Virus record (IMG/VR): IMGVR_UViG_3300033076_001145
Coordinates: 96,001 to 160,000 of that record
From: a virus
Taxonomy: Duplodnaviria > Caudoviricetes
Reading direction: 5' to 3' (one strand)
Length of the DNA stretch: 64,000 nucleotides
Below, one piece after another: positions 3,556 to 63,685 of the stretch. Position 1 is the stretch's first letter. The number at the start of each line of letters is the position of its first letter. The notes beneath the pieces are model-generated. The model did no database searches. It saw nothing but the letters and a program-made list of their open reading frames with translations, and was not told where the DNA came from. The translations under genes were made by a program, and so were the position numbers.

Positions 3556-3944
3556 AACTAAAAGACAAATGTGAATTATACTCCACCTCTGAACTTCGTC
3601 TCCTTGGGATGTATGTTATTGATGTATGTGGGGAACTTATTGGTGGTGGGAATAAACCAACCCCTTCCTTTCACATAAGAAATAATCTAAGTAACCTTTA
3701 TGGTCAGTATTGTTTCTCCCACAAAATATATGTGAACCCATCACAGTGTCAGACCATTTCATATTTCATTGGGGTTATCATTCATGAATATACCCACCAC
3801 ATTCAGGAAGGTCTTTTGGAGAACTACCAAGACTCCGTTAAAGAACATGGGTATGAAAACTGTCCATATGAAATTGAAGCTGTTAGTAATGCCAAGAAGT
3901 ATAAGAAAGAGGTGTGGAAGAAAGTCAAACGATTAATGTCTTAA
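3552..3944 (+). CDS. Zincin-like metallopeptidase domain protein
   Basis: IHEYTH (HExxH) plus downstream PYEIEA. Confidence 0.6.
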   Translation: MKLKDKCELYSTSELRLLGMYVIDVCGELIGGGNKPTPSFHIRNNLSNLYGQYCFSHKIYVNPSQCQTISYFIGVIIHEYTHHIQEGLLENYQDSVKEHGYENCPYEIEAVSNAKKYKKEVWKKVKRLMS

Positions 3945-6033: not shown

Positions 6034-6363
6034 ATGAAATACATAATCAAAGAATCACAAATAAATAATGTTGTATTTTGGTATTTGGATAATCAGGATT
6101 TTATTAAGATTGAAAGGAGTCGTAATATTTATTTTGTTAATTCAGAAGGGGATGAATATGCTCAAATAAGACTTGATAAAGATGATGGCTGGTGTTTTAT
6201 TAATATTAATTTAATTAGAGAAATTTCTTCTTTCTTTTCTTTACAACCTTATGATTCTAAAGAAGTTATCGGCAGATGGGTTGATAATACCCTCCGAATG
6301 AAGGTCACAAACACCCAATATTCAAGAGGTAAAGGCCAGAAAAGGTTGATAATACCCAAATAA
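6034..6363 (+). CDS. Family B small protein (LDNQDF...YAQIR...WVxNTLxMKVTNT) with spacer-encoded tail
   Basis: Paralog of 6379, 56395, 58889, 59643, 62716, 63026. Confidence 0.8.
   Translation: MKYIIKESQINNVVFWYLDNQDFIKIERSRNIYFVNSEGDEYAQIRLDKDDGWCFININLIREISSFFSLQPYDSKEVIGRWVDNTLRMKVTNTQYSRGKGQKRLIIPK
6280..6363. CRISPR. CRISPR-like mini-array: 36-bp repeat 6280-6315, 29-bp spacer, truncated repeat from 6345
   Basis: GTTGATAATACCCTCCGAATGAAGGTCACAAACACC - spacer - GTTGATAATACCC. Confidence 0.7.
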
Positions 6364-6378: not shown

Positions 6379-6696
6379 ATGAAATATCTAATTAAAGAGT
6401 CACAAATAAATAATGTTGTATTTTGGTATTTGGATAATCAGGATTTTATTCAGATTAATAAAGGTAATAAGATATATTTTGTTAATTCGGAGGGTGACGA
6501 ATATGCTCAAATTAGATATGATAAATCAGATGGCTGGTGTTTTATTAATATTAATTTAATTAATGAAATTTCTTCTTTCTTTTCTTTGCAACGCTCTGAT
6601 TCTGAAAAAATTATTGGTAAGTGGGTTGAGAATACCCTCCAAATGAAGGTCACAAACACCGCTTTGTTTGAAAAGTTGTATGATGATTTTGGTTGA
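6379..6696 (+). CDS. Family B small protein with spacer-encoded tail
   Basis: Tandem near-duplicate of 6034..6363. Confidence 0.8.
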   Translation: MKYLIKESQINNVVFWYLDNQDFIQINKGNKIYFVNSEGDEYAQIRYDKSDGWCFININLINEISSFFSLQRSDSEKIIGKWVENTLQMKVTNTALFEKLYDDFG

Positions 6697-6725: not shown

Positions 6726-7100
6726 ATGAAATACATAATCAAAGAATCACAAATTAATTTACTATCTGAGATTGAAAGAAATTGGATGGAAAAAGAATAT
6801 GAAGAAGGGTATAATGACATTAAAGAAATTTTGACATCATTTATTACAGGATTGTTTGATTCGTATGGTGAAATAGGTAATGAGATTGTTATTTATGATG
6901 AAGATAAGGAAGTAATATTTAGTTATATGAAACCAAGTGGTGAGTTATATTACGATTATAGTTTGAATGATTTATACAGTAAGTTATTTCCCCACCCGTT
7001 TTGGTCCGTCCATTCTAAATATGCAATGTCTGATGCGTTTGAACAATCATTCCCATATAAAGTCAATCGAGTAAAAGGTGCTCATATTGTATATCAATGA
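6726..7100 (+). CDS. Hypothetical protein with MKYIIKESQ leader
   Basis: Same upstream sequence and first 10 codons as 6034, different body. Confidence 0.7.
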   Translation: MKYIIKESQINLLSEIERNWMEKEYEEGYNDIKEILTSFITGLFDSYGEIGNEIVIYDEDKEVIFSYMKPSGELYYDYSLNDLYSKLFPHPFWSVHSKYAMSDAFEQSFPYKVNRVKGAHIVYQ

Positions 7101-7390
7101 ACGAAGAAATGAAAAATATGATATGGAGTTATTTGGATAGTCAGGACTTTCATACCATTGATTATAATGGTAATATCATATTCTTTGAATCGTATGAAAG
7201 TTATAATTCTCGTATTCAAAGTGTTTTAATTAGTATCCACCGCCAAAGTAATGAATGTTATGTTAAACCAAAACTACTTAAAGAAATTGAGTCTTATTTC
7301 AATATCGGATGGGATGAGTCATTACCCTATGTTGGAAGCTGGGTTGTAAATAAAGTCGGATTTAATATCAAAAAATTCTATTTTGATTAA
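7097..7390 (+). CDS. Family B paralog without array
   Basis: YLDSQDF...EIESYF...WVVNKVGFNI. Confidence 0.65.
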   Translation: MNEEMKNMIWSYLDSQDFHTIDYNGNIIFFESYESYNSRIQSVLISIHRQSNECYVKPKLLKEIESYFNIGWDESLPYVGSWVVNKVGFNIKKFYFD

Positions 7391-7396
7391 TAACTT

Positions 7397-8059
7397 CTAT
7401 CTTATGTCGTAGAAGTGTTTTACATTTCTTTTTGAATAACGGTCATTTAAAAAATCCCATAGTTGATTAAATCTGTTTTCATCATCACCACATTCTAATT
7501 CAAAGTTTTCACATACATCTTCTATTAAGTTTGATGTGACAAGATGATTAAATTTATATGGTGTCATTGCATTTAATTGTTTTTTCTTATCTGTGTATCT
7601 TTTTGAAGCCACCTTTAAAACATATTGATATATCTGTTCAAGAGTTTCCATATCTATCCTTCTTTTGAAGTAAATAGGTAGTTCTTTTTCTTCCCTCAAT
7701 ACTGATTCATTAATTACATTTCCCAAATTATCATATTTTAAAAGTTCAGTTTCTATAAAAACATCAGCATTTTTTTTCCTCACATCCCATTCAGTCATCC
7801 AAGTAGGACAAACAACAATATTTCCTGAAGTCCATTTATCAATATCTCTTGATATTTTTGTATCAAACCACGACTCAATGTTTGCCGCAGTATCATCAGA
7901 ATCAAAATAAATTTTAAGTAAAGGTTTATTATTATAAGTTGATTGTTCTATAAATGAAACCTCATCATATAAAACATGAATAATTTGCTTAACAAATTTT
8001 AATTTGTGTCCCTCGGATTCTTCCCTTAATATTCTTCTTATGTTTTCTTGTAGGTTCAT
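7397..8059 (-). CDS. MNLQE.IRRILREE-leader protein
   Basis: Leader shared with 8077, 8771, 9112, 11724, 12418; start inferred at MNLQEN. Confidence 0.65.
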   Translation of the reverse strand: MNLQENIRRILREESEGHKLKFVKQIIHVLYDEVSFIEQSTYNNKPLLKIYFDSDDTAANIESWFDTKISRDIDKWTSGNIVVCPTWMTEWDVRKKNADVFIETELLKYDNLGNVINESVLREEKELPIYFKRRIDMETLEQIYQYVLKVASKRYTDKKKQLNAMTPYKFNHLVTSNLIEDVCENFELECGDDENRFNQLWDFLNDRYSKRNVKHFYDIR

Positions 8060-8076
8060 ATTTCTTCTTCTTTGTA

Positions 8077-8769
8077 TTAACAATCTCCTATACTAACATC
8101 TATAGTATGTCCCCTCACTAAATTATTTCCTAATCTGTGTATAAGGGTGCTTATGTTATATATCGCTTGTCTTGTTTTTTGTTTGTTCACAAAACTATCA
8201 TCAGATAAATTAGGATAATATTTTGGTATTTCCACATATAGTTTTAACGAATGTAGAGTTGGTTTAATTTTAAAATCACATATATTTTCCATATCAGGAA
8301 CATCGAGTCTCATTATTGTATCAACAATGAAAATCATTTCCTTTTGTGTTCCAGTAAAACCAAGAACCTTATATAAATTTTCAACCCCTCCAAACATTTT
8401 TGCGGTTTGGTAAATACCCATATCAGAAACCAAATCTTTAATACTTTCTTGGTCTGAGGTCTCTTCCCTTAATATTGACTCATTTAACGGTTCCTCGTCC
8501 AATTTTGAATTTATGTATTTAATTAATGGCGCATCAAATTTATATACATCTTGGGACATGTTGTAATCTTTTAACAGTTCTTTGTTTGACGAAATAAGAT
8601 TTTGAATTGCGTCATAAAAGGCTTCACTTCTATTCTTTCCCCAACTTAAAGAAATTTTAACATCCCTAACCAACCGCTCAAGTTCATTAGCGGTCACCCT
8701 TCTTCTAATGTAATAAGGTAGTTCAGTTCCTTCCCTTAATATTCTTCTTATGGATTCTTGTAGGTTCAT
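8077..8769 (-). CDS. MNLQESIRRILREG-leader protein
   Basis: Leader plus internal repeat 'NESILREE'. Confidence 0.65.
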   Translation of the reverse strand: MNLQESIRRILREGTELPYYIRRRVTANELERLVRDVKISLSWGKNRSEAFYDAIQNLISSNKELLKDYNMSQDVYKFDAPLIKYINSKLDEEPLNESILREETSDQESIKDLVSDMGIYQTAKMFGGVENLYKVLGFTGTQKEMIFIVDTIMRLDVPDMENICDFKIKPTLHSLKLYVEIPKYYPNLSDDSFVNKQKTRQAIYNISTLIHRLGNNLVRGHTIDVSIGDC

Positions 8770-8770
8770 A

Positions 8771-9115
8771 TTATGTATTTGACACTAATTTTTTATATCT
8801 ACTTTTAATTCTATCTTTATAGTAATCTTTTAAACTTTCCATAACCTCACCATACCATTGTGAATCTTCTGGCATTGTACTATATAGTTCGTAATGAATC
8901 CCATCCATTAAAATTGAAATTGTTACATCTATAAACCTATTTAAACTCATAATACTCCCATCTTCTTTATTTGTATTGCGTAACATATTTGATGACATAT
9001 CTAAAGACTCGCTAAACTCCCTCTCTAAATCATTGTTAGGGACTCTACGTCTAATCATCAGGATAGGTTTGGACTCTTCCCTTAGTATTCTTCTTATGGA
9101 TTCTTGCAGGTTCAT
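8771..9115 (-). CDS. MNLQESIRRILREE-leader protein
   Basis: Leader; RRR motif shared with neighbours. Confidence 0.65.
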   Translation of the reverse strand: MNLQESIRRILREESKPILMIRRRVPNNDLEREFSESLDMSSNMLRNTNKEDGSIMSLNRFIDVTISILMDGIHYELYSTMPEDSQWYGEVMESLKDYYKDRIKSRYKKLVSNT

Positions 9116-9369
9116 TTCTTTTTCTTCTTAACACAATTAGGATATTTCTTACCAAACATTGTCTTCATTCCTTTTTGGGTATATCCCGCCCAACACTTTT
9201 CTTGGAGTTCAGATTTATGATTTTCATTTCCACATTTATGACATGTGTATGGGTCGTGTCCGCCTTCAGATAAATTCCAAGACCATCCACACTCCTGACA
9301 AACAATTTTTTTATTTTTGTTATGTAATTCTTCCAATATTATTCTTCTTATGGTCTGTTGTAAATTCAT
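9112..9369 (-). CDS. Small Cys-rich protein (CxxC..CxxC zinc ribbon plus KCWxGY...PNCV motif)
   Basis: CQEC/CHKC; start at MNLQQ after TATTTATA. Confidence 0.6.
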   Translation of the reverse strand: MNLQQTIRRIILEELHNKNKKIVCQECGWSWNLSEGGHDPYTCHKCGNENHKSELQEKCWAGYTQKGMKTMFGKKYPNCVKKKKK

Positions 9370-9430
9370 ATTATTATAAATATCAATTAAAATAAACTGA
9401 AAAAAGTTTTTCAATTTAAGTTTTCTTCCC

Positions 9431-9438
9431 TATATTTG
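9431..9438 (+). promoter_or_regulatory. Bacteroidota -7 promoter box driving the family A array genes
   Basis: TATATTTG 4 nt before ATG 9443. Confidence 0.6.
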
Positions 9439-9442
9439 CCTT

Positions 9443-10228
9443 ATGGACAAAGTATTAAAAGATTTCATATTCCAACAACTATATGAAGAATTGAGTAATG
9501 TGGAGATTATTCCATATAACTACTCCATTTGGTTTATTGACCGAAAAAACGAATATTGGTATTTTGAATTTGAAAAGGATGGAATGTTGTGGTGGAGATA
9601 TGGATTCTTTCTCAGTTTTTTTAAAGTGTTCTCCCTTAGTGATACCGATTTTGAACCCATTCTATCCGCTTGGGTGGAAGAGGTCTTAAATCATAAGGTA
9701 TCTACAACAGGTCGGGAGAAACCAAGGCAACTTTTTCTGGTGGAAGAGGTCCTAAATCATAAGGTATCTACAACCCAAACTTGTTCATATGGTTTGCCTG
9801 AGTGGGTGGAAGAGGTCTTAAATCATAAGGTATCTACAACCCACAATTGCCACGATATTCTACCAGCAGTGGTGGAAGAGGTCCTAAATCATAAGGTATC
9901 TGCAACTCGGCATTTTGACAACCGTTCTCATCCGTTGGTGGAAGAGGTCTTAAATCATAAGGTATCTACAACTTCTCTGAATTCAGGCCAAATGATTGGT
10001 ATGGTGGAAGAGGTATTAAATCATAAGGTATCTACAACCCAAGTCAGGGAGAACAAAGAATCGGTCATGGTGGAAGAGGTCCTAAATTATAAGGTATCAA
10101 CAACTGAGGACCGCATTTCTCAAAACCCAAGGAAGGTGGAAGAGGTCTTAAATCATAAGGTATCCTCAACCTACTTCGATTGGGATAAAAAGGTAATTTT
10201 GGTGGAAGAGGTATTAAAACAAAAATAA
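9443..10228 (+). CDS. Family A protein: ~80-aa domain followed by 22-aa units (VEEVLNHKVSTT + 10 variable aa) encoded by an in-frame CRISPR-like array
   Basis: ORF stays open through 8 repeat-spacer units. Confidence 0.8.
   Translation: MDKVLKDFIFQQLYEELSNVEIIPYNYSIWFIDRKNEYWYFEFEKDGMLWWRYGFFLSFFKVFSLSDTDFEPILSAWVEEVLNHKVSTTGREKPRQLFLVEEVLNHKVSTTQTCSYGLPEWVEEVLNHKVSTTHNCHDILPAVVEEVLNHKVSATRHFDNRSHPLVEEVLNHKVSTTSLNSGQMIGMVEEVLNHKVSTTQVRENKESVMVEEVLNYKVSTTEDRISQNPRKVEEVLNHKVSSTYFDWDKKVILVEEVLKQK
9673..10228. CRISPR. CRISPR-like array A1: 8 full 36-bp repeats plus truncated 9th; 8 unique 30-bp spacers
   Basis: GGTGGAAGAGGTCTTAAATCATAAGGTATCTACAAC at 9673, 9739, 9805, 9871, 9937, 10003, 10069, 10135; partial at 10201; exact 66-bp period. 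Confidence 0.85.
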
Positions 10229-10229
10229 A

Positions 10230-11081
10230 ATGGATAAAATATTAAAAGATTTTATATATCAACAACTATACGAAGAATTGAGTAATGTGGAGATAATTCC
10301 ACATAAGGATTCCATTTGGTTTATTGACCGAGAAAATGAGTATTGGTATTTTGAATTTGATAAGTCAGGAACATTATGGTGGAGATATCATTTCTTTACC
10401 TCGTTTTTTGAGATGTTCTCTATGAAACGCAATGAGTTTACACCCATTCTGTCCGATTGGGTGGAAGAGGTCCTAAATTATAAGGTATCTACAACGACCT
10501 TGATTAGCAAAGGATGCACGGACGAGGTGGAAGAGGTCCTAAATCATAAGGTAACTACAACAAATTTACATACGACACCTGTCCCTGGTAAGGTGGAAGA
10601 GGTCTTAAATCATAAGGTATCCACAACTTTGTCAGCCAATCTCTTGGCACCTTTAATGGTGGAAGAGGTCCTAAATCATAAGGTATCTACAACACGCTGT
10701 ACGGTAATTTATACAACTTCGCTGGTGGAAGAGGTCTTAAATCATAAGGTATCCACATCCAACGCCAAAGAAATTTTACAAAAGCAAACGGTGGAGGATG
10801 TCCTAAATCATAAGGTATCTACAACAATGGCCATCCAATCTTGCAAAGAGAATTGGGTGGAAGAGGTCTTAAATCATAAGGTAATAGAAACCCAAACAGG
10901 GAACGCACCTCCATTGTCATTTGTGAAGGATGTTTTAGATTATAAAGTAACCAAAACTAAAAGAGATTCATCAGTTGATTGGGTTAATGTGGAAGAGATA
11001 TTAACTCATAAGGTATCCTCAACACAAGGATGGGGAGTTGAGGATTGTCACTTGGTTGGGAAGATATTAAATCAAAAATAA
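10230..11081 (+). CDS. Family A protein with in-frame array
   Basis: Tandem paralog of 9443; open through 9 units. Confidence 0.8.
   Translation: MDKILKDFIYQQLYEELSNVEIIPHKDSIWFIDRENEYWYFEFDKSGTLWWRYHFFTSFFEMFSMKRNEFTPILSDWVEEVLNYKVSTTTLISKGCTDEVEEVLNHKVTTTNLHTTPVPGKVEEVLNHKVSTTLSANLLAPLMVEEVLNHKVSTTRCTVIYTTSLVEEVLNHKVSTSNAKEILQKQTVEDVLNHKVSTTMAIQSCKENWVEEVLNHKVIETQTGNAPPLSFVKDVLDYKVTKTKRDSSVDWVNVEEILTHKVSSTQGWGVEDCHLVGKILNQK
10460..11081. CRISPR. CRISPR-like array A2: 9 repeats plus truncated 10th; 9 unique 30-bp spacers; degenerate distal end
   Basis: Repeats at 10460, 10526, 10592, 10658, 10724, 10790, 10856, 10922 (degenerate), 10988; partial at 11054. Confidence 0.85.
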
Positions 11082-11082
11082 A

Positions 11083-11718
11083 ATGGATAAAATATTAAAA
11101 GATTTTATATATCAACAATTATACGAGGAGTTATCAAATGTGGAAATTATTCATCATGGTAAATCAATATGGTTTATTGATAGGGATAATAAATACTGGT
11201 ACTTTGAGCTTGACACATTTAGTAACACTTTATGGTGGAGGTATGATTTCTTTGTATCGTTTTTCAAGGTATTTTCAATGGATAATGAAAAATTCACTCC
11301 AATTATTGCAAATTGGGTTGCAAATATATTAAGTGGTGATTTTGAAGTGTCGAAAAAAGGTTCGGAATTAATTGATGAGGATGGTGTTATAAATAATATT
11401 CTAAATAATAATGGAGTTACTCTTATACCAGCAAATGATGGTATATTTAATAACAGTAGAGCGGAAATTGTAATCAAATCGGAACCTGCAAGTAGGGATT
11501 GGAAGATAGGTGAAGTATTAAAAACTATATCTAAAACCTCACCTCCTTGGGCCTCTCTTATGGTTAATCAAATATTAAAATCCTCATCATCAGTTACTGT
11601 AAATAAAGTATCCAGCTTAGGGAGTTTCCGACAACAATATCATGTGGATGAGGTATTAAAAACAAAATCGTTGTCATACTATCCTGATAGTGTAATAGAT
11701 TCGGTATTAAATAAATAA
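11083..11718 (+). CDS. Family A protein with eroded repeat tail
   Basis: Same N-domain; tail has relics IGEVLKT, MVNQILK, NKVSS, HVDEVLKTK, VIDSVLNK. Confidence 0.7.
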   Translation: MDKILKDFIYQQLYEELSNVEIIHHGKSIWFIDRDNKYWYFELDTFSNTLWWRYDFFVSFFKVFSMDNEKFTPIIANWVANILSGDFEVSKKGSELIDEDGVINNILNNNGVTLIPANDGIFNNSRAEIVIKSEPASRDWKIGEVLKTISKTSPPWASLMVNQILKSSSSVTVNKVSSLGSFRQQYHVDEVLKTKSLSYYPDSVIDSVLNK

Positions 11719-11723
11719 AGTAA

Positions 11724-12050
11724 TTAACGACATTCCCTCTGATAAGTATTCTTTAAGTGCTCGGTGAATTTTTTACTAGCATAATCCACCATTAACTTAT
11801 AAGACTCTCCCCACTCAACAGTATTTTCATCCATATCGGAGAAGAAGTCCCAATACATAGATGTTATGGCTTTTTCAATTACCGTTTCAACATATTGTTC
11901 CTTTGACAATCCACAAACATTATATTGAACTTTAACTTCTTTAATTGCAAAATCAATCTGCCAATCAATTGCGTGTAGTCTTCTTTTAACACTATTTGGG
12001 ACCTCTGTTGATTCTTTTAATACTCTCTTTATGGATTCTCTGAGTTTCAT
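11724..12050 (-). CDS. MKLRESIKRVLKES-leader protein
   Basis: Leader motif; TATTTATA upstream. Confidence 0.6.
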   Translation of the reverse strand: MKLRESIKRVLKESTEVPNSVKRRLHAIDWQIDFAIKEVKVQYNVCGLSKEQYVETVIEKAITSMYWDFFSDMDENTVEWGESYKLMVDYASKKFTEHLKNTYQRECR

Positions 12051-12082
12051 ATTATTATAAATATATTTATATTTATTAAATT

Positions 12083-12421
12083 ATGAAGGATGACAATCAA
12101 TTAGAGGAACTTGTATTTGCATATCTTAATGCTCAGGACTTTGAAATTATCCATAAAGAAGGTTATCATAAATACGCATACTTTGTTTATGACAAGGATG
12201 ACGCTCACGCTCAGATAATGTATCACAAAACCTTTGTTGTGATTTCTAAAGAGTTGTCGGATGAAATTAATTCTTATTTCAATGTTCCTTCAGGTGATAA
12301 CGCATCAGTTGAAATTAAAAATTGGATTGAGTCAAAGTTAAACACTAAAATTGATATTTGGGATGTTAAAATATATGGTGGAATGATGGGCGATGCCTGG
12401 TTATCTGTTAATGAGGATTAA
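12083..12421 (+). CDS. Family B paralog without recognisable array
   Basis: YLNAQDF...HAQIMY...EINSYF...WIESKL. Confidence 0.65.
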   Translation: MKDDNQLEELVFAYLNAQDFEIIHKEGYHKYAYFVYDKDDAHAQIMYHKTFVVISKELSDEINSYFNVPSGDNASVEIKNWIESKLNTKIDIWDVKIYGGMMGDAWLSVNED

Positions 12422-13135
12422 AATATCATATCTTCATCCATTTTATCCTGAATATCTTGTTGAGCAATAGGTAATAGTTCATTCATAATGATGTCATATA
12501 CACCTGGTAAATAAACTTCATCATACCAACTAAACAACTCTTCAACACTATCAAATCTTGTTTTGTCTTGTAACACTTTGAAATAGTCTCCTTCCCCAGC
12601 GATTTCAACAACTACCTGTTTACCAATTTTTCTACTTCTATCCTCCAAAGAAAACCAATCAATTTCAACAGGTGTATAATCAAGTCCATCCCAAAATGGT
12701 GTGGCCATTGCCGTAATAAGTTCAGTATAATTAGGGAGAAATTCTCCCGTTTTAATCTCACCATCCCAATAAAAAATACCATCCAAATTTGTTTGTATAT
12801 TAAATTCATTGTAGGTATCTTTCAATTTACCTTTTTCTAAATTTTCAATTAATAATTCGTTCGCAATTTTTGAATTGATTTCAATTTTTGAAAGTTTGAC
12901 TAATTGTGTCGTACTAACACCAAGGTATTTTTTTGCTTCATATATACCAACCTCGTCAATTAGTTCAAGAATAGAATTTTGAAATTTATCTTCAGAATCT
13001 TCTCTTAATATTTTTCTTATGTTATCCCTTAGATTCATATCATTATAAATACCACTTAAAATGAAAACCCCACTGAGTAGCGAATTCAATGGGGTTAATG
13101 TAGCCTAAACTACAGCGGTCCTAAGCCCACTTTCT

Positions 13136-13651
13136 TTAATCATAATCTTTTAAATTATACTTATCAATTATCTGTTGGAATATTTGATTTCTATATGTTT
13201 TTGCTAATGTTTCTCTTTTTGGTATAAAAGAATATCCAAATCCCGAACTTCCACTCATTCCTACGACTCTCCAAACAACTCTTCCGTCTACGTAATTAAC
13301 TTTTCGTAATCTAGCATCAAAAGAATATTGCATGTCATTTTTCCTACCAAATTTAAACTTACCTAATTTTTTTTCATCTTTACCAAAATCCTCCAAATTT
13401 AAGTGTTGGACAAGATTGTCATCAAAATACATATTAACCTCATTACCTTCTCTAATATAATAAGGTCCAACATTTTCATTTTTGTAAAATTCCTTTAGGT
13501 TTCCACCATAAACCATTTTTATGTAGTTTGAGACACTACCAAACATTCTTTCAATCTGATACCAACCTATTTCATTATAAAGACCTTTTAAGTCGTTATC
13601 TGACGGCTCTTCAGTTTCTTCTTTTAATATTTTCTTAATTAAATCTTTCAT
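13136..13651 (-). CDS. MKDLIKKILKEET-leader protein
   Basis: First 13 aa identical to 31277 ORF. Confidence 0.6.
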   Translation of the reverse strand: MKDLIKKILKEETEEPSDNDLKGLYNEIGWYQIERMFGSVSNYIKMVYGGNLKEFYKNENVGPYYIREGNEVNMYFDDNLVQHLNLEDFGKDEKKLGKFKFGRKNDMQYSFDARLRKVNYVDGRVVWRVVGMSGSSGFGYSFIPKRETLAKTYRNQIFQQIIDKYNLKDYD

Positions 13652-15433: not shown

Positions 15434-15835
15434 ATGATAGATGAAATTGTTAAACAGTCAATATTTAATTTATTATTTGATGACATGGATGGTGCTGAGG
15501 TCATTGACTTAGGTAAATCCATTTGGGTAATTAATAAAGAAACAAGGTATTGGTATTTCGAATATCAAACCGACACCAAAAATCTTTGGTGGAGATATGA
15601 CTTTTTCTTATCATATTTAACACCATTTGGTATGAATGAGGTTTGGTATCACATTATATTCTCCGAGTTCTTTAATTACTTCCTAAATCAAAAACAATTT
15701 AATTCGGCTGAGGTTAAAAAACTATGTGAAGGTGACTTTGTTTCGATATTGGAGATGGACCAAGTGTTATCTGATGATAGAGAACTACAAATCAAAATGA
15801 AACAAATTATAGATGAAAAAAGGTCAGATGTCTGA
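15434..15835 (+). CDS. Family A paralog without array
   Basis: GKSIWVI.KETRYWYFEY...LWWRYDFF matches 11083 ORF. Confidence 0.7.
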   Translation: MIDEIVKQSIFNLLFDDMDGAEVIDLGKSIWVINKETRYWYFEYQTDTKNLWWRYDFFLSYLTPFGMNEVWYHIIFSEFFNYFLNQKQFNSAEVKKLCEGDFVSILEMDQVLSDDRELQIKMKQIIDEKRSDV

Positions 15836-17466: not shown

Positions 17467-17910
17467 TTATTCACTAACTTGTTTTTCGTCCATTGATAGG
17501 AGTCCTTTCCCGTATTTTTCTAATCTTTCGTAATACCTATCTTTCACATAGTCATGAATTGGAATTGCTCTTCCATCACTATCAATCCTAACAAATGTGA
17601 TATATGTTTGAGTAACCGCTTCTTGGTTTCCAGTATGGACATTATGTTTTCTAACTTCAACATAGAGTTTAATTGATGTTGTTCCAAACTTATCCACCCT
17701 ACCATAAATCTTTAATAGACTACCAACCTTAACAGGACTTTTAAATATTAACTCATCAATCTTAATTGTTACCATTCTTGTGGTGTCACAGATTTGAAAT
17801 GCGTATGATGCCCCAGCTTCGTCAATAAGTCCCATCATACTTCCTCCGAACATGTTCCCACCAATTCCGAGTTCGTTACCTTTACATATGTAAGTTGTGA
17901 TTAATTCCAT
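17467..17910 (-). CDS. Acyl-CoA thioesterase (hotdog fold, YciA-like)
   Basis: NMFGG...IDEA, VT..ID...F..PV.VG, GTTSI, TFV.ID..GR. Confidence 0.85.
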   Translation of the reverse strand: MELITTYICKGNELGIGGNMFGGSMMGLIDEAGASYAFQICDTTRMVTIKIDELIFKSPVKVGSLLKIYGRVDKFGTTSIKLYVEVRKHNVHTGNQEAVTQTYITFVRIDSDGRAIPIHDYVKDRYYERLEKYGKGLLSMDEKQVSE

Positions 17911-55994: not shown

Positions 55995-56394
55995 AACCTA
56001 ACCTTTAACTATAAATATATGAATATGTTCATAAATCTATATAATCAAATAAAAAACCCCTCATTTTTGGTGAGGGGTTCATATTATTTTTAATACCTAT
56101 CAAATATATGTATCCTCAATCCCCTCAATAAATCGTAACAATCGTTGTCTTTCACCTTCAGTTAATTCCCCATCACTTTCGATTTCTTCTCTTAACATTT
56201 CCAAACTCTGTAATGAACTTTGAATACATCCTGCCAATTCGTCATCAACATTTTGAATGTATTTACCATACATTTCATAGTTAGACTTTTCCCCTTCAGA
56301 GATTACTTTATTCACAATCTTTATTAATTCAGTTTCAGTAAGTTTTATTGTTTTACTCATAATAAAATAAATATCATGTAAAATAAAAAAACCC

Positions 56395-56802
56395 TCACTT
56401 GGATGGTAGTCTCAACCTTCCTTCAAAAGGGTTAATGTAAAATTTGATATTTGTAACTTTCTTTTTGAGGGTGTGCTCAACCCATTTACCAATAAATTCT
56501 TTAGAGTCATTGTGTCCCATAGAATAGAAAGAAGAAATTTCTTTGATTAAACCATCACCGATAAAACACGAACCGTCGTCTTTATCATATCTAATTTGAG
56601 CATATTTGTCACTTTTTGAATTGACAAAATAAATTCTATTTTTTTCTTTAATCTGAATGAAGTCCTGATTGTTTAAGTATTCAAATACTGAATTATCTAA
56701 TTCTGACTCTGACTGAGGAATTGTGTCTCCACCACCTTTTTTAATAATTCTTTTTACTAGACTTAGTAAATCTGATTCTGTCAATCTAATTACCTTTTTC
56801 AT
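56395..56802 (-). CDS. Family B protein with MKKVIRLTESDL leader and spacer-encoded tail
   Basis: YLNNQDF...YAQIRYDKDDG...WVEHTLKKKVTNI-KFYINPFEG-RLRLPSK. Confidence 0.75.
   Translation of the reverse strand: MKKVIRLTESDLLSLVKRIIKKGGGDTIPQSESELDNSVFEYLNNQDFIQIKEKNRIYFVNSKSDKYAQIRYDKDDGSCFIGDGLIKEISSFYSMGHNDSKEFIGKWVEHTLKKKVTNIKFYINPFEGRLRLPSK
56399..56481. CRISPR. Degenerate mini-array: partial repeat ending 56416, 29-bp spacer, repeat 56446-56481
   Basis: GGATGGTAGTCTCAAC ... GATATTTGTAACTTTCTTTTTGAGGGTGTGCTCAAC. Confidence 0.55.
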
Positions 56803-56859: not shown

Positions 56860-57873
56860 TTATTTTACAATCTTCGTGGTATATAATTTACCTGAGTCAT
56901 CATTAATTAGAATGACATAGGTTCCCTGACTTAGATTTTCGGAATTAATTGTCATCATGTTTGTTGTGTATTTGTTTTGATAAACACATCGTCCATCAAC
57001 TGACATAATCTTAATGTTTCCGTTATTAGATGGTGTAACCACATTAATATTATCCATCACAGGATTTGGACATACCTTAACATTATTGGTCATTGTTTCT
57101 TCAACACCAACAGTATAACTATCAACAACACTCAATGTCCATTCAGTCATAATACCACCAGGATACCAACCTGTTGAGTCAATGGTGAATGTTAAACAAG
57201 TATCAGCAAAACATCCATCAAATGAATAAGCCCATACACAGATTTGATATGTTCCAACACCTCCATAAGTTGTTGTTGGGAATGCAACATTTGCTGAGTC
57301 ACCATTACCAAAATTCCAAGTATATCCAATGCAGTTTGAAGATTGGTTAATCAAAAAGATTACATTATCTTCGATTACAACTGAATCAGAAGAAACAAAA
57401 GACATATCCAAGTATGGGGTCGTTTCAAGTTGTCCGTCACAGTTATTATCAATACCATCACACATTTCCCATGCTCCGGGATATGTATTTGGGTTAAAAG
57501 CATCACAATCATATTCATCATTCCAACCATCATTATCACTATCAATACCAGTAACCAAATCAATTGAGTATTCATTAACTGCTCCGAAGATAACAATACC
57601 ACCATCGCATTGGGTCATCCCAACACAATTGGTCGCACATAGATTAACATAAACACTATTACCAACCACAGGAACCGATGTTGTGTAAACACCTGATGGG
57701 TCGGAAGTAAAAACCAATTCACCTGTTGTTTGGTTTAAGGAGTCAATATACATACCTGTAACGGTATATGGACAATTTGTATCACCAATAACGGTCAAGT
57801 TAATTGGGAATTGAGAAAACACATTAAGTGTTAGGATGCTCATAAGAGCGAAAAGAAAAGTTTTTAGTTTCAT
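56860..57873 (-). CDS. Secreted protein with MopE-like metal-binding motif, PKD domain and T9SS type A C-terminal sorting domain
   Basis: Signal peptide; D.DNDG..DCD...YPGA.E.CDGIDNNCDG; YTWNFGNG; V.PNPV.D.I.V...DGR.V...L..GTY.I...KIVK. Confidence 0.8.
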   Translation of the reverse strand: MKLKTFLFALMSILTLNVFSQFPINLTVIGDTNCPYTVTGMYIDSLNQTTGELVFTSDPSGVYTTSVPVVGNSVYVNLCATNCVGMTQCDGGIVIFGAVNEYSIDLVTGIDSDNDGWNDEYDCDAFNPNTYPGAWEMCDGIDNNCDGQLETTPYLDMSFVSSDSVVIEDNVIFLINQSSNCIGYTWNFGNGDSANVAFPTTTYGGVGTYQICVWAYSFDGCFADTCLTFTIDSTGWYPGGIMTEWTLSVVDSYTVGVEETMTNNVKVCPNPVMDNINVVTPSNNGNIKIMSVDGRCVYQNKYTTNMMTINSENLSQGTYVILINDDSGKLYTTKIVK

Positions 57874-58888: not shown

Positions 58889-59239
58889 TTATAAGGTAAT
58901 TTGTTTTTGTGTAAAGATTAATTGGGGGGTATTCTCAACCATCAGCTCCTTTGTTGGAAATGATATCGGGGTATTTGTAACCTTCATTTGGGTGGTATTC
59001 TCAACCCATCGTCCAATAACTTTTTCAGAATCAGAGCGTTGTAAAGAAAAGTAGGAATAAATTTCGTTAGTTAAATTAAAATCAATAAAACACCAACCAT
59101 CATCTTTATCAAATCTTATTCGAGCGTATTTATCATTCTCTGAATTTACAAAACAAATTTTATCATTACCCATATCAATCTGAATGAAGTCCTGACTATC
59201 CAAATAAGAAAATATTACTCTTTCTAAATGTTTGTCCAT
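58889..59239 (-). CDS. Family B protein with 30-bp in-frame spacer
   Basis: WVENTTQMKVTNT-PISFPTKELM-VENTP. Confidence 0.75.
   Translation of the reverse strand: MDKHLERVIFSYLDSQDFIQIDMGNDKICFVNSENDKYARIRFDKDDGWCFIDFNLTNEIYSYFSLQRSDSEKVIGRWVENTTQMKVTNTPISFPTKELMVENTPQLIFTQKQITL
58921..59005. CRISPR. Mini-array: partial repeat ending 58939, 30-bp spacer, repeat 58970-59005
   Basis: GGGGGTATTCTCAAC ... GGTATTTGTAACCTTCATTTGGGTGGTATTCTCAAC. Confidence 0.7.
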
Positions 59240-59253
59240 GATTATAAATATGA

Positions 59254-59550
59254 TTAATAACCAACAATTGGACTAGCAACCTCCACATTAATAGATTCAA
59301 TTCCGAGTTTATCTTCAATCCATTTATTGATTACACTAATGGAATCCCCATAATCTAAAGAAAAGAATTTGCTGACTTCTTCGGCCAAATCATAGTGTAT
59401 TGTGCACCATCGGTCTTTTGGGAGGTATTTAATCTGAGCAAATTCATCATCTTCTGAATTAACAAAATATATCCTATACTTCATTTTAATTACAACAAAG
59501 TCCTGTCCATCCAAATAAGAAAATATTACTCGTTCTAAATGTTTGTCCAT
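59254..59550 (-). CDS. Family B paralog without recognisable array
   Basis: MDKHLERVIFSYLDGQDF...WIEDKL. Confidence 0.7.
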   Translation of the reverse strand: MDKHLERVIFSYLDGQDFVVIKMKYRIYFVNSEDDEFAQIKYLPKDRWCTIHYDLAEEVSKFFSLDYGDSISVINKWIEDKLGIESINVEVASPIVGY

Positions 59551-59570: not shown

Positions 59571-59714
59571 GGTATTCTCAACAGAGCAGTGGAAACGTTT
59601 TCAGAACTATAGGTGTTTGTGACCTTCATTTGGAGGGTATTCTCAACAAGAGATGAATAGCGAATACCTTCCCGCTTGGGTGTTTGTGACCTTCATTTGG
59701 AGGGTATTCTCAAC
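59571..59714. CRISPR. Mini-array: two identical 36-bp repeats (59612-59647, 59679-59714), partial repeat ending 59582, spacers of 29 and 31 bp
   Basis: GGTGTTTGTGACCTTCATTTGGAGGGTATTCTCAAC x2. Confidence 0.85.
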
Positions 59715-59951
59715 CCATTTACCAATAACTTGTTCAGAATCAGAGCTTTGCAAAGAAAAGAAAGAAGAAATTTCTTTAACTAAATTAGTATGAATAAAAC
59801 ACCATCCATCATCTTCGTCATATCTAATTTGAGCGTATTCGTCACCTTCTGAACTAACAAAAAAAATTTTATCATTACCCATATCAATCTGAATGAAGTC
59901 TTGGCTATCCAAATAAGAAAATATTACTCGTTCTAAATCTTTGTCCATCAT
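59643..59951 (-). CDS. Family B protein with spacer-encoded tail
   Basis: WVENTLQMKVTNT-QAGRYSLFISC*; stop lies within the next repeat. Confidence 0.8.
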   Translation of the reverse strand: MMDKDLERVIFSYLDSQDFIQIDMGNDKIFFVSSEGDEYAQIRYDEDDGWCFIHTNLVKEISSFFSLQSSDSEQVIGKWVENTLQMKVTNTQAGRYSLFISC

Positions 59952-61166: not shown

Positions 61167-61520
61167 TTAGAAACTCTTTTTCCACTTTAATAAGTAGAGA
61201 CCTCTTTCTTTGTTGAGAGGTTCAAAACTTATTCTAAAGTTGTCGTTTAACTGAGCATAAACAGGATAAATTGGAAATTTCCATCCTTCGGTTTCTATAT
61301 GGAATCCCGCCATTCCAACAGGACTATTTTTAATTTTATCTATAAAACTTTTTGGAGTCTCCTCTTTACCGAAATTAACTTTAAGTTGGGTTTTAAAATC
61401 GTCAGGGATTTGAATAGTTGAAATTTTATTAATAGGTCCCTTATCAGTTATTTGTTCTTCAATAACTCGTTTAACAATCTTAACCAAATCTGATTCTGTC
61501 AATTTAATAACCTTTTTCAT
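61167..61520 (-). CDS. MKKVIKLTESDL-leader protein
   Basis: Shared leader; start inferred. Confidence 0.6.
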   Translation of the reverse strand: MKKVIKLTESDLVKIVKRVIEEQITDKGPINKISTIQIPDDFKTQLKVNFGKEETPKSFIDKIKNSPVGMAGFHIETEGWKFPIYPVYAQLNDNFRISFEPLNKERGLYLLKWKKSF

Positions 61521-61589
61521 ATTAAATAAATATATCAATGTTTTTCTTTTTTATTCCATAAATTTTATATCTTAGCCAAAATTATAACA

Positions 61590-62302: not shown

Positions 62303-62656
62303 TTACTTGGTGTAAGTTCTTAGACAATGTGCCGCCCAAGCCGCCGCTCCAAGAAAGATTGGCATCAATAGACCTGCTCCACCGAACATTGCAATATGAA
62401 CCGCAACCGCTCCTGACATTACAGATGAAAGAACCAACGCTCCATAAACAGATGTTCTTGGGATACAAAGGGCAATTACACCAGCAACTTCCATAACTCC
62501 AACAAGTGCCATGTAAGGTAACATGTTCATTGCAGTAAAGTTAGTGGTCATAGCCTCGCTTCCCATAATCTTTGACAATCCGCCCATTCCGAGCATAAAG
62601 GTTACGATTACTGTAAGCAACCAACCTAAGTTTTTAAGTGTTAAATAATTTTTCAT
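62303..62656 (-). CDS. DoxX-family membrane protein
   Basis: Four TMs, G..K, G..E..G, P.T...GA, GA.A.H. Confidence 0.8.
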   Translation of the reverse strand: MKNYLTLKNLGWLLTVIVTFMLGMGGLSKIMGSEAMTTNFTAMNMLPYMALVGVMEVAGVIALCIPRTSVYGALVLSSVMSGAVAVHIAMFGGAGLLMPIFLGAAAWAAHCLRTYTK

Positions 62657-62700: not shown

Positions 62701-62787
62701 ATTTGGAGGGTATTATCAACGGATTGAAAAATTGCCTTTGCTCAATGCCATGGTGTTTGTGACCTTCATTTGTAAGGTATTCTCAAC
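62701..62787. CRISPR. Mini-array: partial repeat 62701-62720, 31-bp spacer, repeat 62752-62787
   Basis: ATTTGGAGGGTATTATCAAC ... GGTGTTTGTGACCTTCATTTGTAAGGTATTCTCAAC. Confidence 0.75.
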
Positions 62788-63012
62788 CCACCTACTGATA
62801 ACTTGTTCAGAATCAGAGCGTTGCAAAGAAAAGTAATAAGAAATTTCTTTAATTAAATCCAAACCAATATAACACAAACCATCATCATATCTAATTTGAG
62901 CAAATTCATCATTCTCTGAATAGGCAAAATAGATACTATCATATTTTTTAATCTGAATAAAGTCCTGACTATCCAAATAAGAAAATAATACTCTTTCAAA
63001 ATCTTTGTACAT
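62716..63012 (-). CDS. Family B protein with spacer-encoded tail
   Basis: WVENTLQMKVTNT-MALSKGNFSIR*. Confidence 0.8.
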   Translation of the reverse strand: MYKDFERVLFSYLDSQDFIQIKKYDSIYFAYSENDEFAQIRYDDGLCYIGLDLIKEISYYFSLQRSDSEQVISRWVENTLQMKVTNTMALSKGNFSIR

Positions 63013-63025
63013 GATTATAAATATA

Positions 63026-63109
63026 TTAGTTGGGTATTCTCAACCACTTGTCAATATTCATATACGCATCGGTGGTTTTTGTAACTTTCATTTTTAAGGT
63101 ATTCTCAAC
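63026..63109. CRISPR. Mini-array: partial repeat ending 63044, 29-bp spacer, repeat 63074-63109
   Basis: GGGTATTCTCAAC ... GGTTTTTGTAACTTTCATTTTTAAGGTATTCTCAAC. Confidence 0.65.
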
Positions 63110-63355
63110 CCACCTACTGATGACTCTTTGGGATTCGTCTCGTCCTAAATTAAAGAAAGAAGAAATTTCTCTATTTAAATCGATATTAATAAAACAAACA
63201 CCTCTATCTTCATCATATCTAATTTGAGCAAGGTCGTCACTTTCTGAATTAATAAAGAATAAACTTGTGTCATTACCTGTAATAATAAAATCCTGATTGT
63301 CAAGATACTTAAATATTACTTTATCAAATTGTGATTCGGTTATAAGGTATTTCAT
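63026..63355 (-). CDS. Family B protein (MKYLITESQ leader) with spacer-encoded tail
   Basis: WVENTLKMKVTKT-TDAYMNIDK-WLRIPN*. Confidence 0.8.
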   Translation of the reverse strand: MKYLITESQFDKVIFKYLDNQDFIITGNDTSLFFINSESDDLAQIRYDEDRGVCFINIDLNREISSFFNLGRDESQRVISRWVENTLKMKVTKTTDAYMNIDKWLRIPN

Positions 63356-63367
63356 ATAAGATAAATA

Positions 63368-63685
63368 TTAATAAGGAACCATTAATATGGGTACCTCATT
63401 TCTTAAATAACTTTGAACAACCATTACATCACTTATTTTAAATTTGTGTTTAATCCACAAACCTATAATTTTTTGAGAATCTTCTTTAGATATAGAAAAG
63501 AAAGAAGAGACTTCCTTACACAAATTATCAGACATCCCAACCCAAGGGATATCATAATCAAATCTAATTTGAGCATATTCATCACCTTCTGAATTAACGA
63601 AGTATATTTCCTCCTCCCCATCAATCTGAATGAAGTCCTGACTATCTAAATAAGAAAATATTACTCTTTCTAAATCTTTGTCCAT
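63368..63685 (-). CDS. Family B paralog with eroded repeat region
   Basis: Family body; ends ILMVPY, comparable to LRIPN. Confidence 0.7.
   Translation of the reverse strand: MDKDLERVIFSYLDSQDFIQIDGEEEIYFVNSEGDEYAQIRFDYDIPWVGMSDNLCKEVSSFFSISKEDSQKIIGLWIKHKFKISDVMVVQSYLRNEVPILMVPY

Follow-up and report, generated by a model that had tools for sequence, protein, structure and literature searches.

Two tandem phage genes end in regular arrays of repeats and spacers that are read through in frame, which raises the question of what writes such arrays and what they encode. CRISPR adaptation is known for storing guides; at this locus, a reaction with the same geometry seems to be writing protein. 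The window, i.e., the whole 64,000-nucleotide stretch that was analyzed, comprises bases 96,001-160,000 of a 208.6-kb virus record (32% GC, estimated to be 71% complete). Among its ORFs are genes that we take to encode a T4-like capsid, portal and terminase. A CHU_C protein and the element TAnnTTTG, located 2-8 nt before a start codon 63 times, are Bacteroidota-type features. The virus resembles the jumbo phages of lakes, whose predicted hosts are Bacteroidetes (PMC9723584), and is treated here as a freshwater jumbo phage of Bacteroidota. No bS21 gene was found in the window's own, incomplete record.

Architecture of the genes and arrays

Gene 1 (9443-10228, plus strand; 261 aa) and gene 2 (10230-11081, plus strand; 283 aa) encode paralogous N-terminal head domains, each followed by an array. 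The 77-residue domain of gene 1 (9443-9673) and its counterpart in gene 2 (10230-10460) share 83% DNA identity over 191 nt. Array 1 (9673-10228) contains eight repeats and eight 30-nt spacers; its full 36-nt repeats lie at 9673+66k with 0-3 mismatches each, and it ends in a partial terminal repeat from 10201 and a stop codon at 10226-10228. Array 2 (10460-11081) contains nine repeats, at 10460 to 10988, and nine 30-nt spacers, followed by a partial terminal repeat from 11054 and a stop; its repeats carry 1-11 mismatches, the worst near the far end, and four of its spacers are shared with alleles in the related loci L043 and L077. A preliminary description of this DNA had noted a 66-bp recurrence in 8 + 9 units with 17 unrelated 30-bp spacers. 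The recurrence is borne out and all 17 spacers fall into different clusters, but the repeat copies are not all identical. Their ends, likened there to the GTTG..CAAC type, are GGTG...CAAC. The spacers are indeed richer in GC than the genome, with a wider spread than the 43-47% (against roughly 30%) first given for three of them: they measure 30-50%, with a mean of about 42%, against 32%.

The first repeat begins at the last base of the Trp77 codon, so that each 22-codon unit (36-nt repeat plus 30-nt spacer) encodes 12 near-constant and 10 variable residues. The first repeat is thus the end of the protein domain, and the gene body occupies the position where a CRISPR leader would be, just as had been proposed. 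Immediately downstream, gene 3 (11083-11718, plus strand) encodes the same N-terminal domain and a tail of irregular, degenerate repeat-like motifs, which to judge by its sequence is probably an old, decayed array; the gene is nearly unchanged in allele P0179.

TAnnTTTG is the Bacteroidota promoter consensus. One such -7 element (9431-9438, plus strand) lies four bases before the gene 1 start codon, and of 62 distinct regions upstream of homologues, 36 contain the motif; in tandems it is found mostly on the first gene, among those listed. From this predicted promoter, the gene 1 transcript would probably be early and nearly leaderless. Genes 1 and 2 and their array-bearing relatives are called family A here. 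A poly-T run (two Phe codons) precedes the first repeat by about 55 nt in family A (window 9617-9623); the Flavobacterium covae VI-B leader also has a poly-T run (L094 4686-4691), which may be a coincidence.

Polarized growth of the arrays

The family A comparison set comprises 93 distinct array stretches with 310 spacers, drawn from viral and metagenome contigs. Repeat mismatches climb outward from the gene body: rank 0 has 2.8, and ranks 8-9 have about 10. Spacers at the first position are unique in 46% of cases, those at the last position in 16%, and spacer order is fixed: among 188 recurring pairs, none is reversed. In young arrays, the array's own first-repeat variant, which is array-specific, is copied exactly. 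Spacers have also moved between paralogues (spacer 3 of gene 1 is found in the gene-2-like array of L077), and deletions occur. The comparison of relatives for spacer gain beside the gene body, suggested earlier, shows that the first spacers are the least shared and that the far end decays.

The locus has regular repeats, unrelated spacers of near-constant length, polarized gain, trailer decay and, at the protein level, spacers from outside DNA, all of which characterize CRISPR arrays. It departs from them in that a CRISPR array and its leader are noncoding, whereas here the leader position and the array form a single ORF.

Two irregularities were seen. One inherited unit, the fifth or nearby, is 72 nt long owing to six extra bases in the repeat, with the frame kept (L003, L005, L009, L055). 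In L129, a gene 1.4 kb upstream of the homologue used as query contains a further 66-nt array (3565-3812), which has a repeat variant of its own.

Selection on reading frame and peptides

The arrays are under selection on the reading frame and on the encoded peptides, as judged from sequence comparisons. In family A, 302 of 310 spacers are 30 nt long, and five of the others are 33 or 36 nt. The earlier description had found all 17 spacers in frame and free of stops and had estimated how rarely this would happen by chance; its count is correct and the argument is far stronger in the larger set, in which in-frame stops are missing from all 241 spacer clusters (shuffles give 113 ± 7.5), while the other five frames have 64-125. 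Stand-alone and last-in-tandem arrays are likewise stop-free. Counted as distinct changes and not as phylogenetically independent events, 46 of 89 changes among inherited spacer variants are synonymous, against 23 ± 3.6 expected under the same mutation spectrum; scored in other frames, the synonymous counts are 19/94 and 14/88. Repeat changes counted in the same way are synonymous in 314 of 759 cases, against 228 ± 12 expected. Old spacers persist across many phages. Neither spacers that align to one another or are fixed across strains with no outside protospacers, nor frequent stops or frameshifts in related arrays, either of which had been named beforehand as contrary evidence, were seen.

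No shared motif was found among the spacer peptides. Position 3 is A in 45% of family A spacers, versus about 30% elsewhere; this reflects a preferred polar residue at the first position or else a motif used in acquisition.

Origin of the spacers

Spacers have 41.7% GC, versus 33.6% for stop-free phage 30-mers. At the DNA level, no protospacer was found in 50,697 phage records, in exact IMG/VR scans with the two newest spacers, in 401 Flavobacteriales genomes (searched with a partly AT-rich query), in three whole families (157, 68 and 55 genomes) or in 151 genomes of a fourth. No source or template for the mutually unrelated spacers was found in the phage's own genome, in all array loci or in five related phage records. 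An 86% match in surA was dropped since it requires a 2-nt gap.

The protein-level search ran against about 2.4 Mb of sequence from Bacteroidota, most of it belonging to a single Flavobacteriales genome. Here, 13 of 292 spacers match Bacteroidota proteins (at least 8/9 or 8/10 residues), against 0-5 in eight codon shuffles; a BLOSUM score of at least 64 is reached by 13 spacers and by none of 150 shuffles. A few of the 13 matches may nonetheless be due to chance. Only about 4% of spacers can thus be placed. The matched spacers fall in conserved motifs, and their mismatches are mostly at third codon positions. The motifs are presumably those of RsmH, SecA, GuaA, AlsT, PaaC, GlmS, RuvB, RibBA and YifB. 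The spacer at 6316-6344, which belongs to a related gene family (family B, below), agrees with bacterial glmS in 9/9 residues and 25/29 nt, all four differences being synonymous. Only two spacers of arrays 1 and 2 were matched, both in gene 1. Read in the antisense frame, spacer 4 (9907-9936, plus strand) is similar to a motif in a secreted repeat protein from Bacteroidota (7/9 residues, score 65), a moderate match given that 0/150 shuffles reached 64; the in-frame peptide of spacer 8 (10171-10200, plus strand) resembles a 155-aa Flavobacteriales ORF (7/9 residues, score 63), a borderline match since 2% of shuffles reach 60. About seven placed family A spacers are in sense orientation and four to six in antisense, in several frames. 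No clear acquisition motif (PAM) was found in the flanks of orthologues.

The protein-level matches point to a Bacteroidota chromosome as the spacer source, presumably that of the phage's host. The suspicion that the spacers are foreign thus holds for bacterial chromosomes, at the protein level; for phages and plasmids, no match was found.

A second family and the shared domain

Seven window genes (family B) encode a domain homologous to that of family A (HH probability 96%). Its last helix and strand are encoded by a different 36-nt repeat, with an end pattern reversed relative to family A, followed mostly by one spacer and a half repeat. Two genes are on the plus strand: 6034-6363 (repeat 6280-6315, 29-nt spacer 6316-6344, half repeat) and 6379-6696 (repeat 6625-6660, 31-nt spacer). 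The other five are on the minus strand, between 56395 and 63355 (56395-56802, 58889-59239, 59643-59951, 62716-63012 and 63026-63355); that at 59643-59951 has two identical repeats and two spacers. As in natural arrays, first spacers vary in length, with 21, 9 and 10 of 29, 30 and 31 nt. After a 29-nt insert, the following repeat reads LRIP and then a stop; after 31 nt, the stop is immediate. Stops are depleted in first spacers of 29 or 31 nt (2/31, versus 13.9 expected) and are present in 6/9 of those of 30 nt, which suggests that the newest family B insert replaces the C-terminal peptide instead of adding to it. A model in which the spacer forms a loop closed by an LRIP strand is unsupported by the structure prediction (tail pLDDT 57).

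In the structure model, the family A domain consists of a helix, four strands and two helices (pLDDT 84-92 over residues 1-80), and the tail of the gene 1 protein is of low confidence (pLDDT under 50 from residue 89); the structure prediction called for earlier thus gives a confident head and no confident fold for the repeat region. The family numbers 1159 proteins at 90% clustering and 534 clusters at 50%; in protein searches, the 22-residue unit is kept and the repeat peptide differs by lineage. Neither head nor tail has a named family in Pfam or PHROG. In structure searches, neither domain clearly matched a known fold (best Z 5.1 and 4.6), which does not by itself prove the fold new; the other matches are only to uncharacterized phage proteins. 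Repeat-less paralogues of the domain (window 15434-15835, 7097-7390, 12083-12421, 59254-59550 and 63368-63685) carry the helix-strand element, which therefore exists without an array.

The repeat and the inserting enzyme

Likeness to a Bacteroidota VI-B-type repeat, suggested from the outset, is confirmed: the family A repeat is 36 nt long and is identical at 25/36 positions to that of F. columnare/F. covae (found with a search pattern that was itself built partly on that repeat), with the same leader-to-array orientation. First repeats of different lineages are identical to the host-type Flavobacterium repeat at 19-25 of 36 positions. The Flavobacterium array lies after cas13b, and in F. columnare it is filled in trans by a type II-C Cas1-Cas2 (PMC8092290). 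Similarly to the phage arrays, it has about 30-nt spacers, grows from one side and lacks its own cas1 and cas2. The phage arrays differ from it in being phage-borne, with a protein-coding leader position, spacers filtered for frame and stops, spacer matches in both orientations and a repeat hairpin that is predicted to be weak. Flavobacterium arrays mix spacers of 29, 30 and 31 nt, 9/22 of which would carry a stop, and their repeat folds at -10.9 kcal/mol, versus a mean of -4.2 (range 0 to -7.8) for phage first repeats. No cas13b was found beside the phage arrays, where the neighboring ORFs encode small paralogues; a genome-wide search, run with no positive control, was also empty. The array fails two tests that define type VI-B, an adjacent cas13b and spacers complementary to target mRNA. 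Frameshifts or stops, possibly sequencing errors, seem to interrupt both cas13b and cas1 in the F. covae assembly used here (L094 931-4609; G002 C1 1385201-1386021).

The search for cas1, cas2 and reverse transcriptase genes, also called for earlier, was carried to related phages and found nothing: eight phage records, including two complete ones, were negative for cas1 (the positive control worked), three for cas2, and five, of which two are complete, for both cas4 and a reverse transcriptase, the window's own record being 71% complete. Nor does a candidate integrase adjoin the fetched arrays. Host Cas1-Cas2 acting in trans is the simplest reading and probably the right one; the drift of the repeat and the reversed ends of family B leave room for a phage integrase.

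A proposed model of spacer capture into protein genes

We favor, with moderate confidence, the reading that the locus is a protein-diversifying cassette built on CRISPR-type spacer capture, most likely with host Cas1-Cas2 in trans. A VI-B-like 36-nt sequence would encode the final helix and strand of a small phage domain. During infection, an integrase, most likely the host type II-C Cas1-Cas2, would act at the first repeat, inserting 29-31-nt pieces of the host chromosome and duplicating the repeat. Family A would keep only 30-nt stop-free inserts, so that each event adds 12 constant and 10 new residues beside the domain. In family B, a 29-nt insert would put the new repeat copy into another frame, which runs into a stop codon, and the C-terminal peptide would be replaced as a result. 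Recombination between repeats would delete units and transfer them among paralogues. The resulting protein, expressed early, would combine a folded head with a hypervariable tail and would probably bind or decoy a changing host partner.

The comparisons establish the geometry, the polarity, the selection on frame and amino acids and the bacterial-chromosome origin of some spacers. Acquisition into an ORF, as first proposed, is supported by the polarized gain, the exact duplication of the first repeat, the 29-31-nt inserts, the VI-B-like repeat, the inserts from bacterial genes and the selection on frame and peptides. Against this model stand the failure of the searches to find a DNA-level protospacer, a host genome or a PAM, first repeats more variable than a Cas1-Cas2 target might tolerate, the reversed ends of family B and a tail that is modeled with low confidence. 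In general terms, we lean slightly towards the view that phages have placed a CRISPR-type integration site in protein genes. Spacer capture would then sample the host chromosome as a natural random-peptide library from which selection keeps 10-residue cassettes that are useful for binding host factors or acting as decoys for them. Such cassettes would accumulate in family A and be exchanged in family B, and the system would be a new diversity-generating class.

Alternative explanations

The same protein-diversifying array could be written by a phage-encoded integrase unrelated to Cas1. Such an enzyme would suit a repeat that drifts freely between lineages over a constant 36+30 ruler, two repeat families with reversed ends in one genome, and phages most of whose proteins belong to no known family; a single bacterial spacer match is reported for similar lake phages (PMC9723584). 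It is nonetheless rather unlikely, given that repeat length, insert spread, polarity and the 25/36 identity fit a system filled by host Cas1-Cas2 (PMC8092290), and that the fetched arrays have no candidate enzyme beside them. Alternatively, the repeats may be decoy sites that absorb host Cas1-Cas2, with inserts tolerated only where they leave the gene readable and the operon translated, and their peptides nearly neutral. Spacer peptides that share no motif and are modeled with low confidence would be expected of such sites, as would the frameshifts and occasional stops in family B, and in tandem genes separated by one-base gaps a stop could be polar. Yet stand-alone and last-in-tandem arrays are free of stops too, retained spacers show a twofold synonymous excess in the ORF frame only, and old spacers are retained in many phages; we consider decoy sites unlikely.

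The preliminary description had offered a guide array that is kept translated as its own alternative. In this case, the transcript would be a pre-crRNA for host Cas13b, supplying guides against host mRNA or decoy crRNA, and translation would protect it from termination or decay. The 36+30 geometry fits, the phage mRNA strand corresponds to the VI-B crRNA strand (PMC8092290), some spacers match host genes, and phage arrays with host-matching spacers are known (PMC7162821). Given the strand correspondence, however, only spacers antisense to host mRNA could serve as Cas13b guides. In F. columnare, every natural VI-B spacer matched the mRNA strand (PMC8092290), whereas the placed phage spacers lie in both orientations, and a frame-mixture model, itself biased towards the in-frame class, rejects an antisense-only origin (sense share 0.67, 0.56-0.75, versus 0.07). 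Together with the weak folding of the first repeats and changes that track codons and not pairing, the two orientations favor peptides over guides, so that a guide array, weakened in this way, is distinctly improbable. An ordinary tandem protein repeat with diverged linkers can draw on the fact that the repeat encodes a true structural element, present in repeat-less paralogues. It is refuted, beyond any serious doubt: the spacers form 241 clusters that bear no relation to one another, the polarity is strict, the boundaries fall within codons, and the inserts have matches in unrelated bacterial genes, on either strand and in more than one frame.

Relation to known systems

The capture cassette that we favor grows like a CRISPR array and yields a product like that of a diversity-generating element. 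The compact CRISPR arrays of huge phages are likewise short, with a host-like repeat, no acquisition genes and, in some, host-matching spacers (PMC7162821). These are treated as sources of guide RNA (PMC7162821); by contrast, the array described here is an ORF under amino-acid selection, and several paralogous genes per genome carry one. Diversity-generating retroelements similarly place a hypervariable C-terminal region on a constant scaffold in phages (PMC8144416). The array fails the tests of that class: no reverse transcriptase was found in five phage records, two of which are complete, and template and variable repeats that differ at adenines are missing, there being neither a template repeat nor adenine-specific change. 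Its variation consists in the insertion of whole foreign segments. A precedent for uptake of host-derived spacers during phage infection is Cas4-linked uptake with a Campylobacter phage, where host-chromosome spacers are reported to be gained in infected II-C cells (PMC4534711, citing PMC4283603). Those spacers enter a noncoding host array (PMC4534711); here, the recipient is a phage gene and no cas4 was found. No description of translated repeat-spacer arrays under amino-acid selection was found in the full-text papers searched, a set with few subscription journals.

It thus seems that a phage protein gains new 10-residue peptides through DNA capture. If so, directed protein hypervariability can arise by a route other than retroelements and recombination cassettes, one that turns noncoding frames and antisense strands into new peptides in a single step. 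The large family is a dated record of inserts. It offers a means of identifying which bacteria uncultured lake phages infect, and of testing directly what Cas1-Cas2 requires of leader and repeat when both must encode protein.

Other features of the window

Host-like genes are present, encoding T9SS-type cargo proteins, a DoxX family protein (gene at 42% GC) and an acyl-CoA thioesterase-like protein (window 56860-57873, 62303-62656 and 17467-17910; also related locus L158 495-2090). The database relatives looked up for the DoxX, thioesterase and T9SS-type genes are from phages or distant bacteria, the closest being in other phages. Many unrelated ORFs (window 7397-9414, 11724-13651, 56100-56802 and 61167-61538) share a short N-terminal leader ending in I/L-x-E, which is like a capsid-targeting and prohead-cleavage signal.
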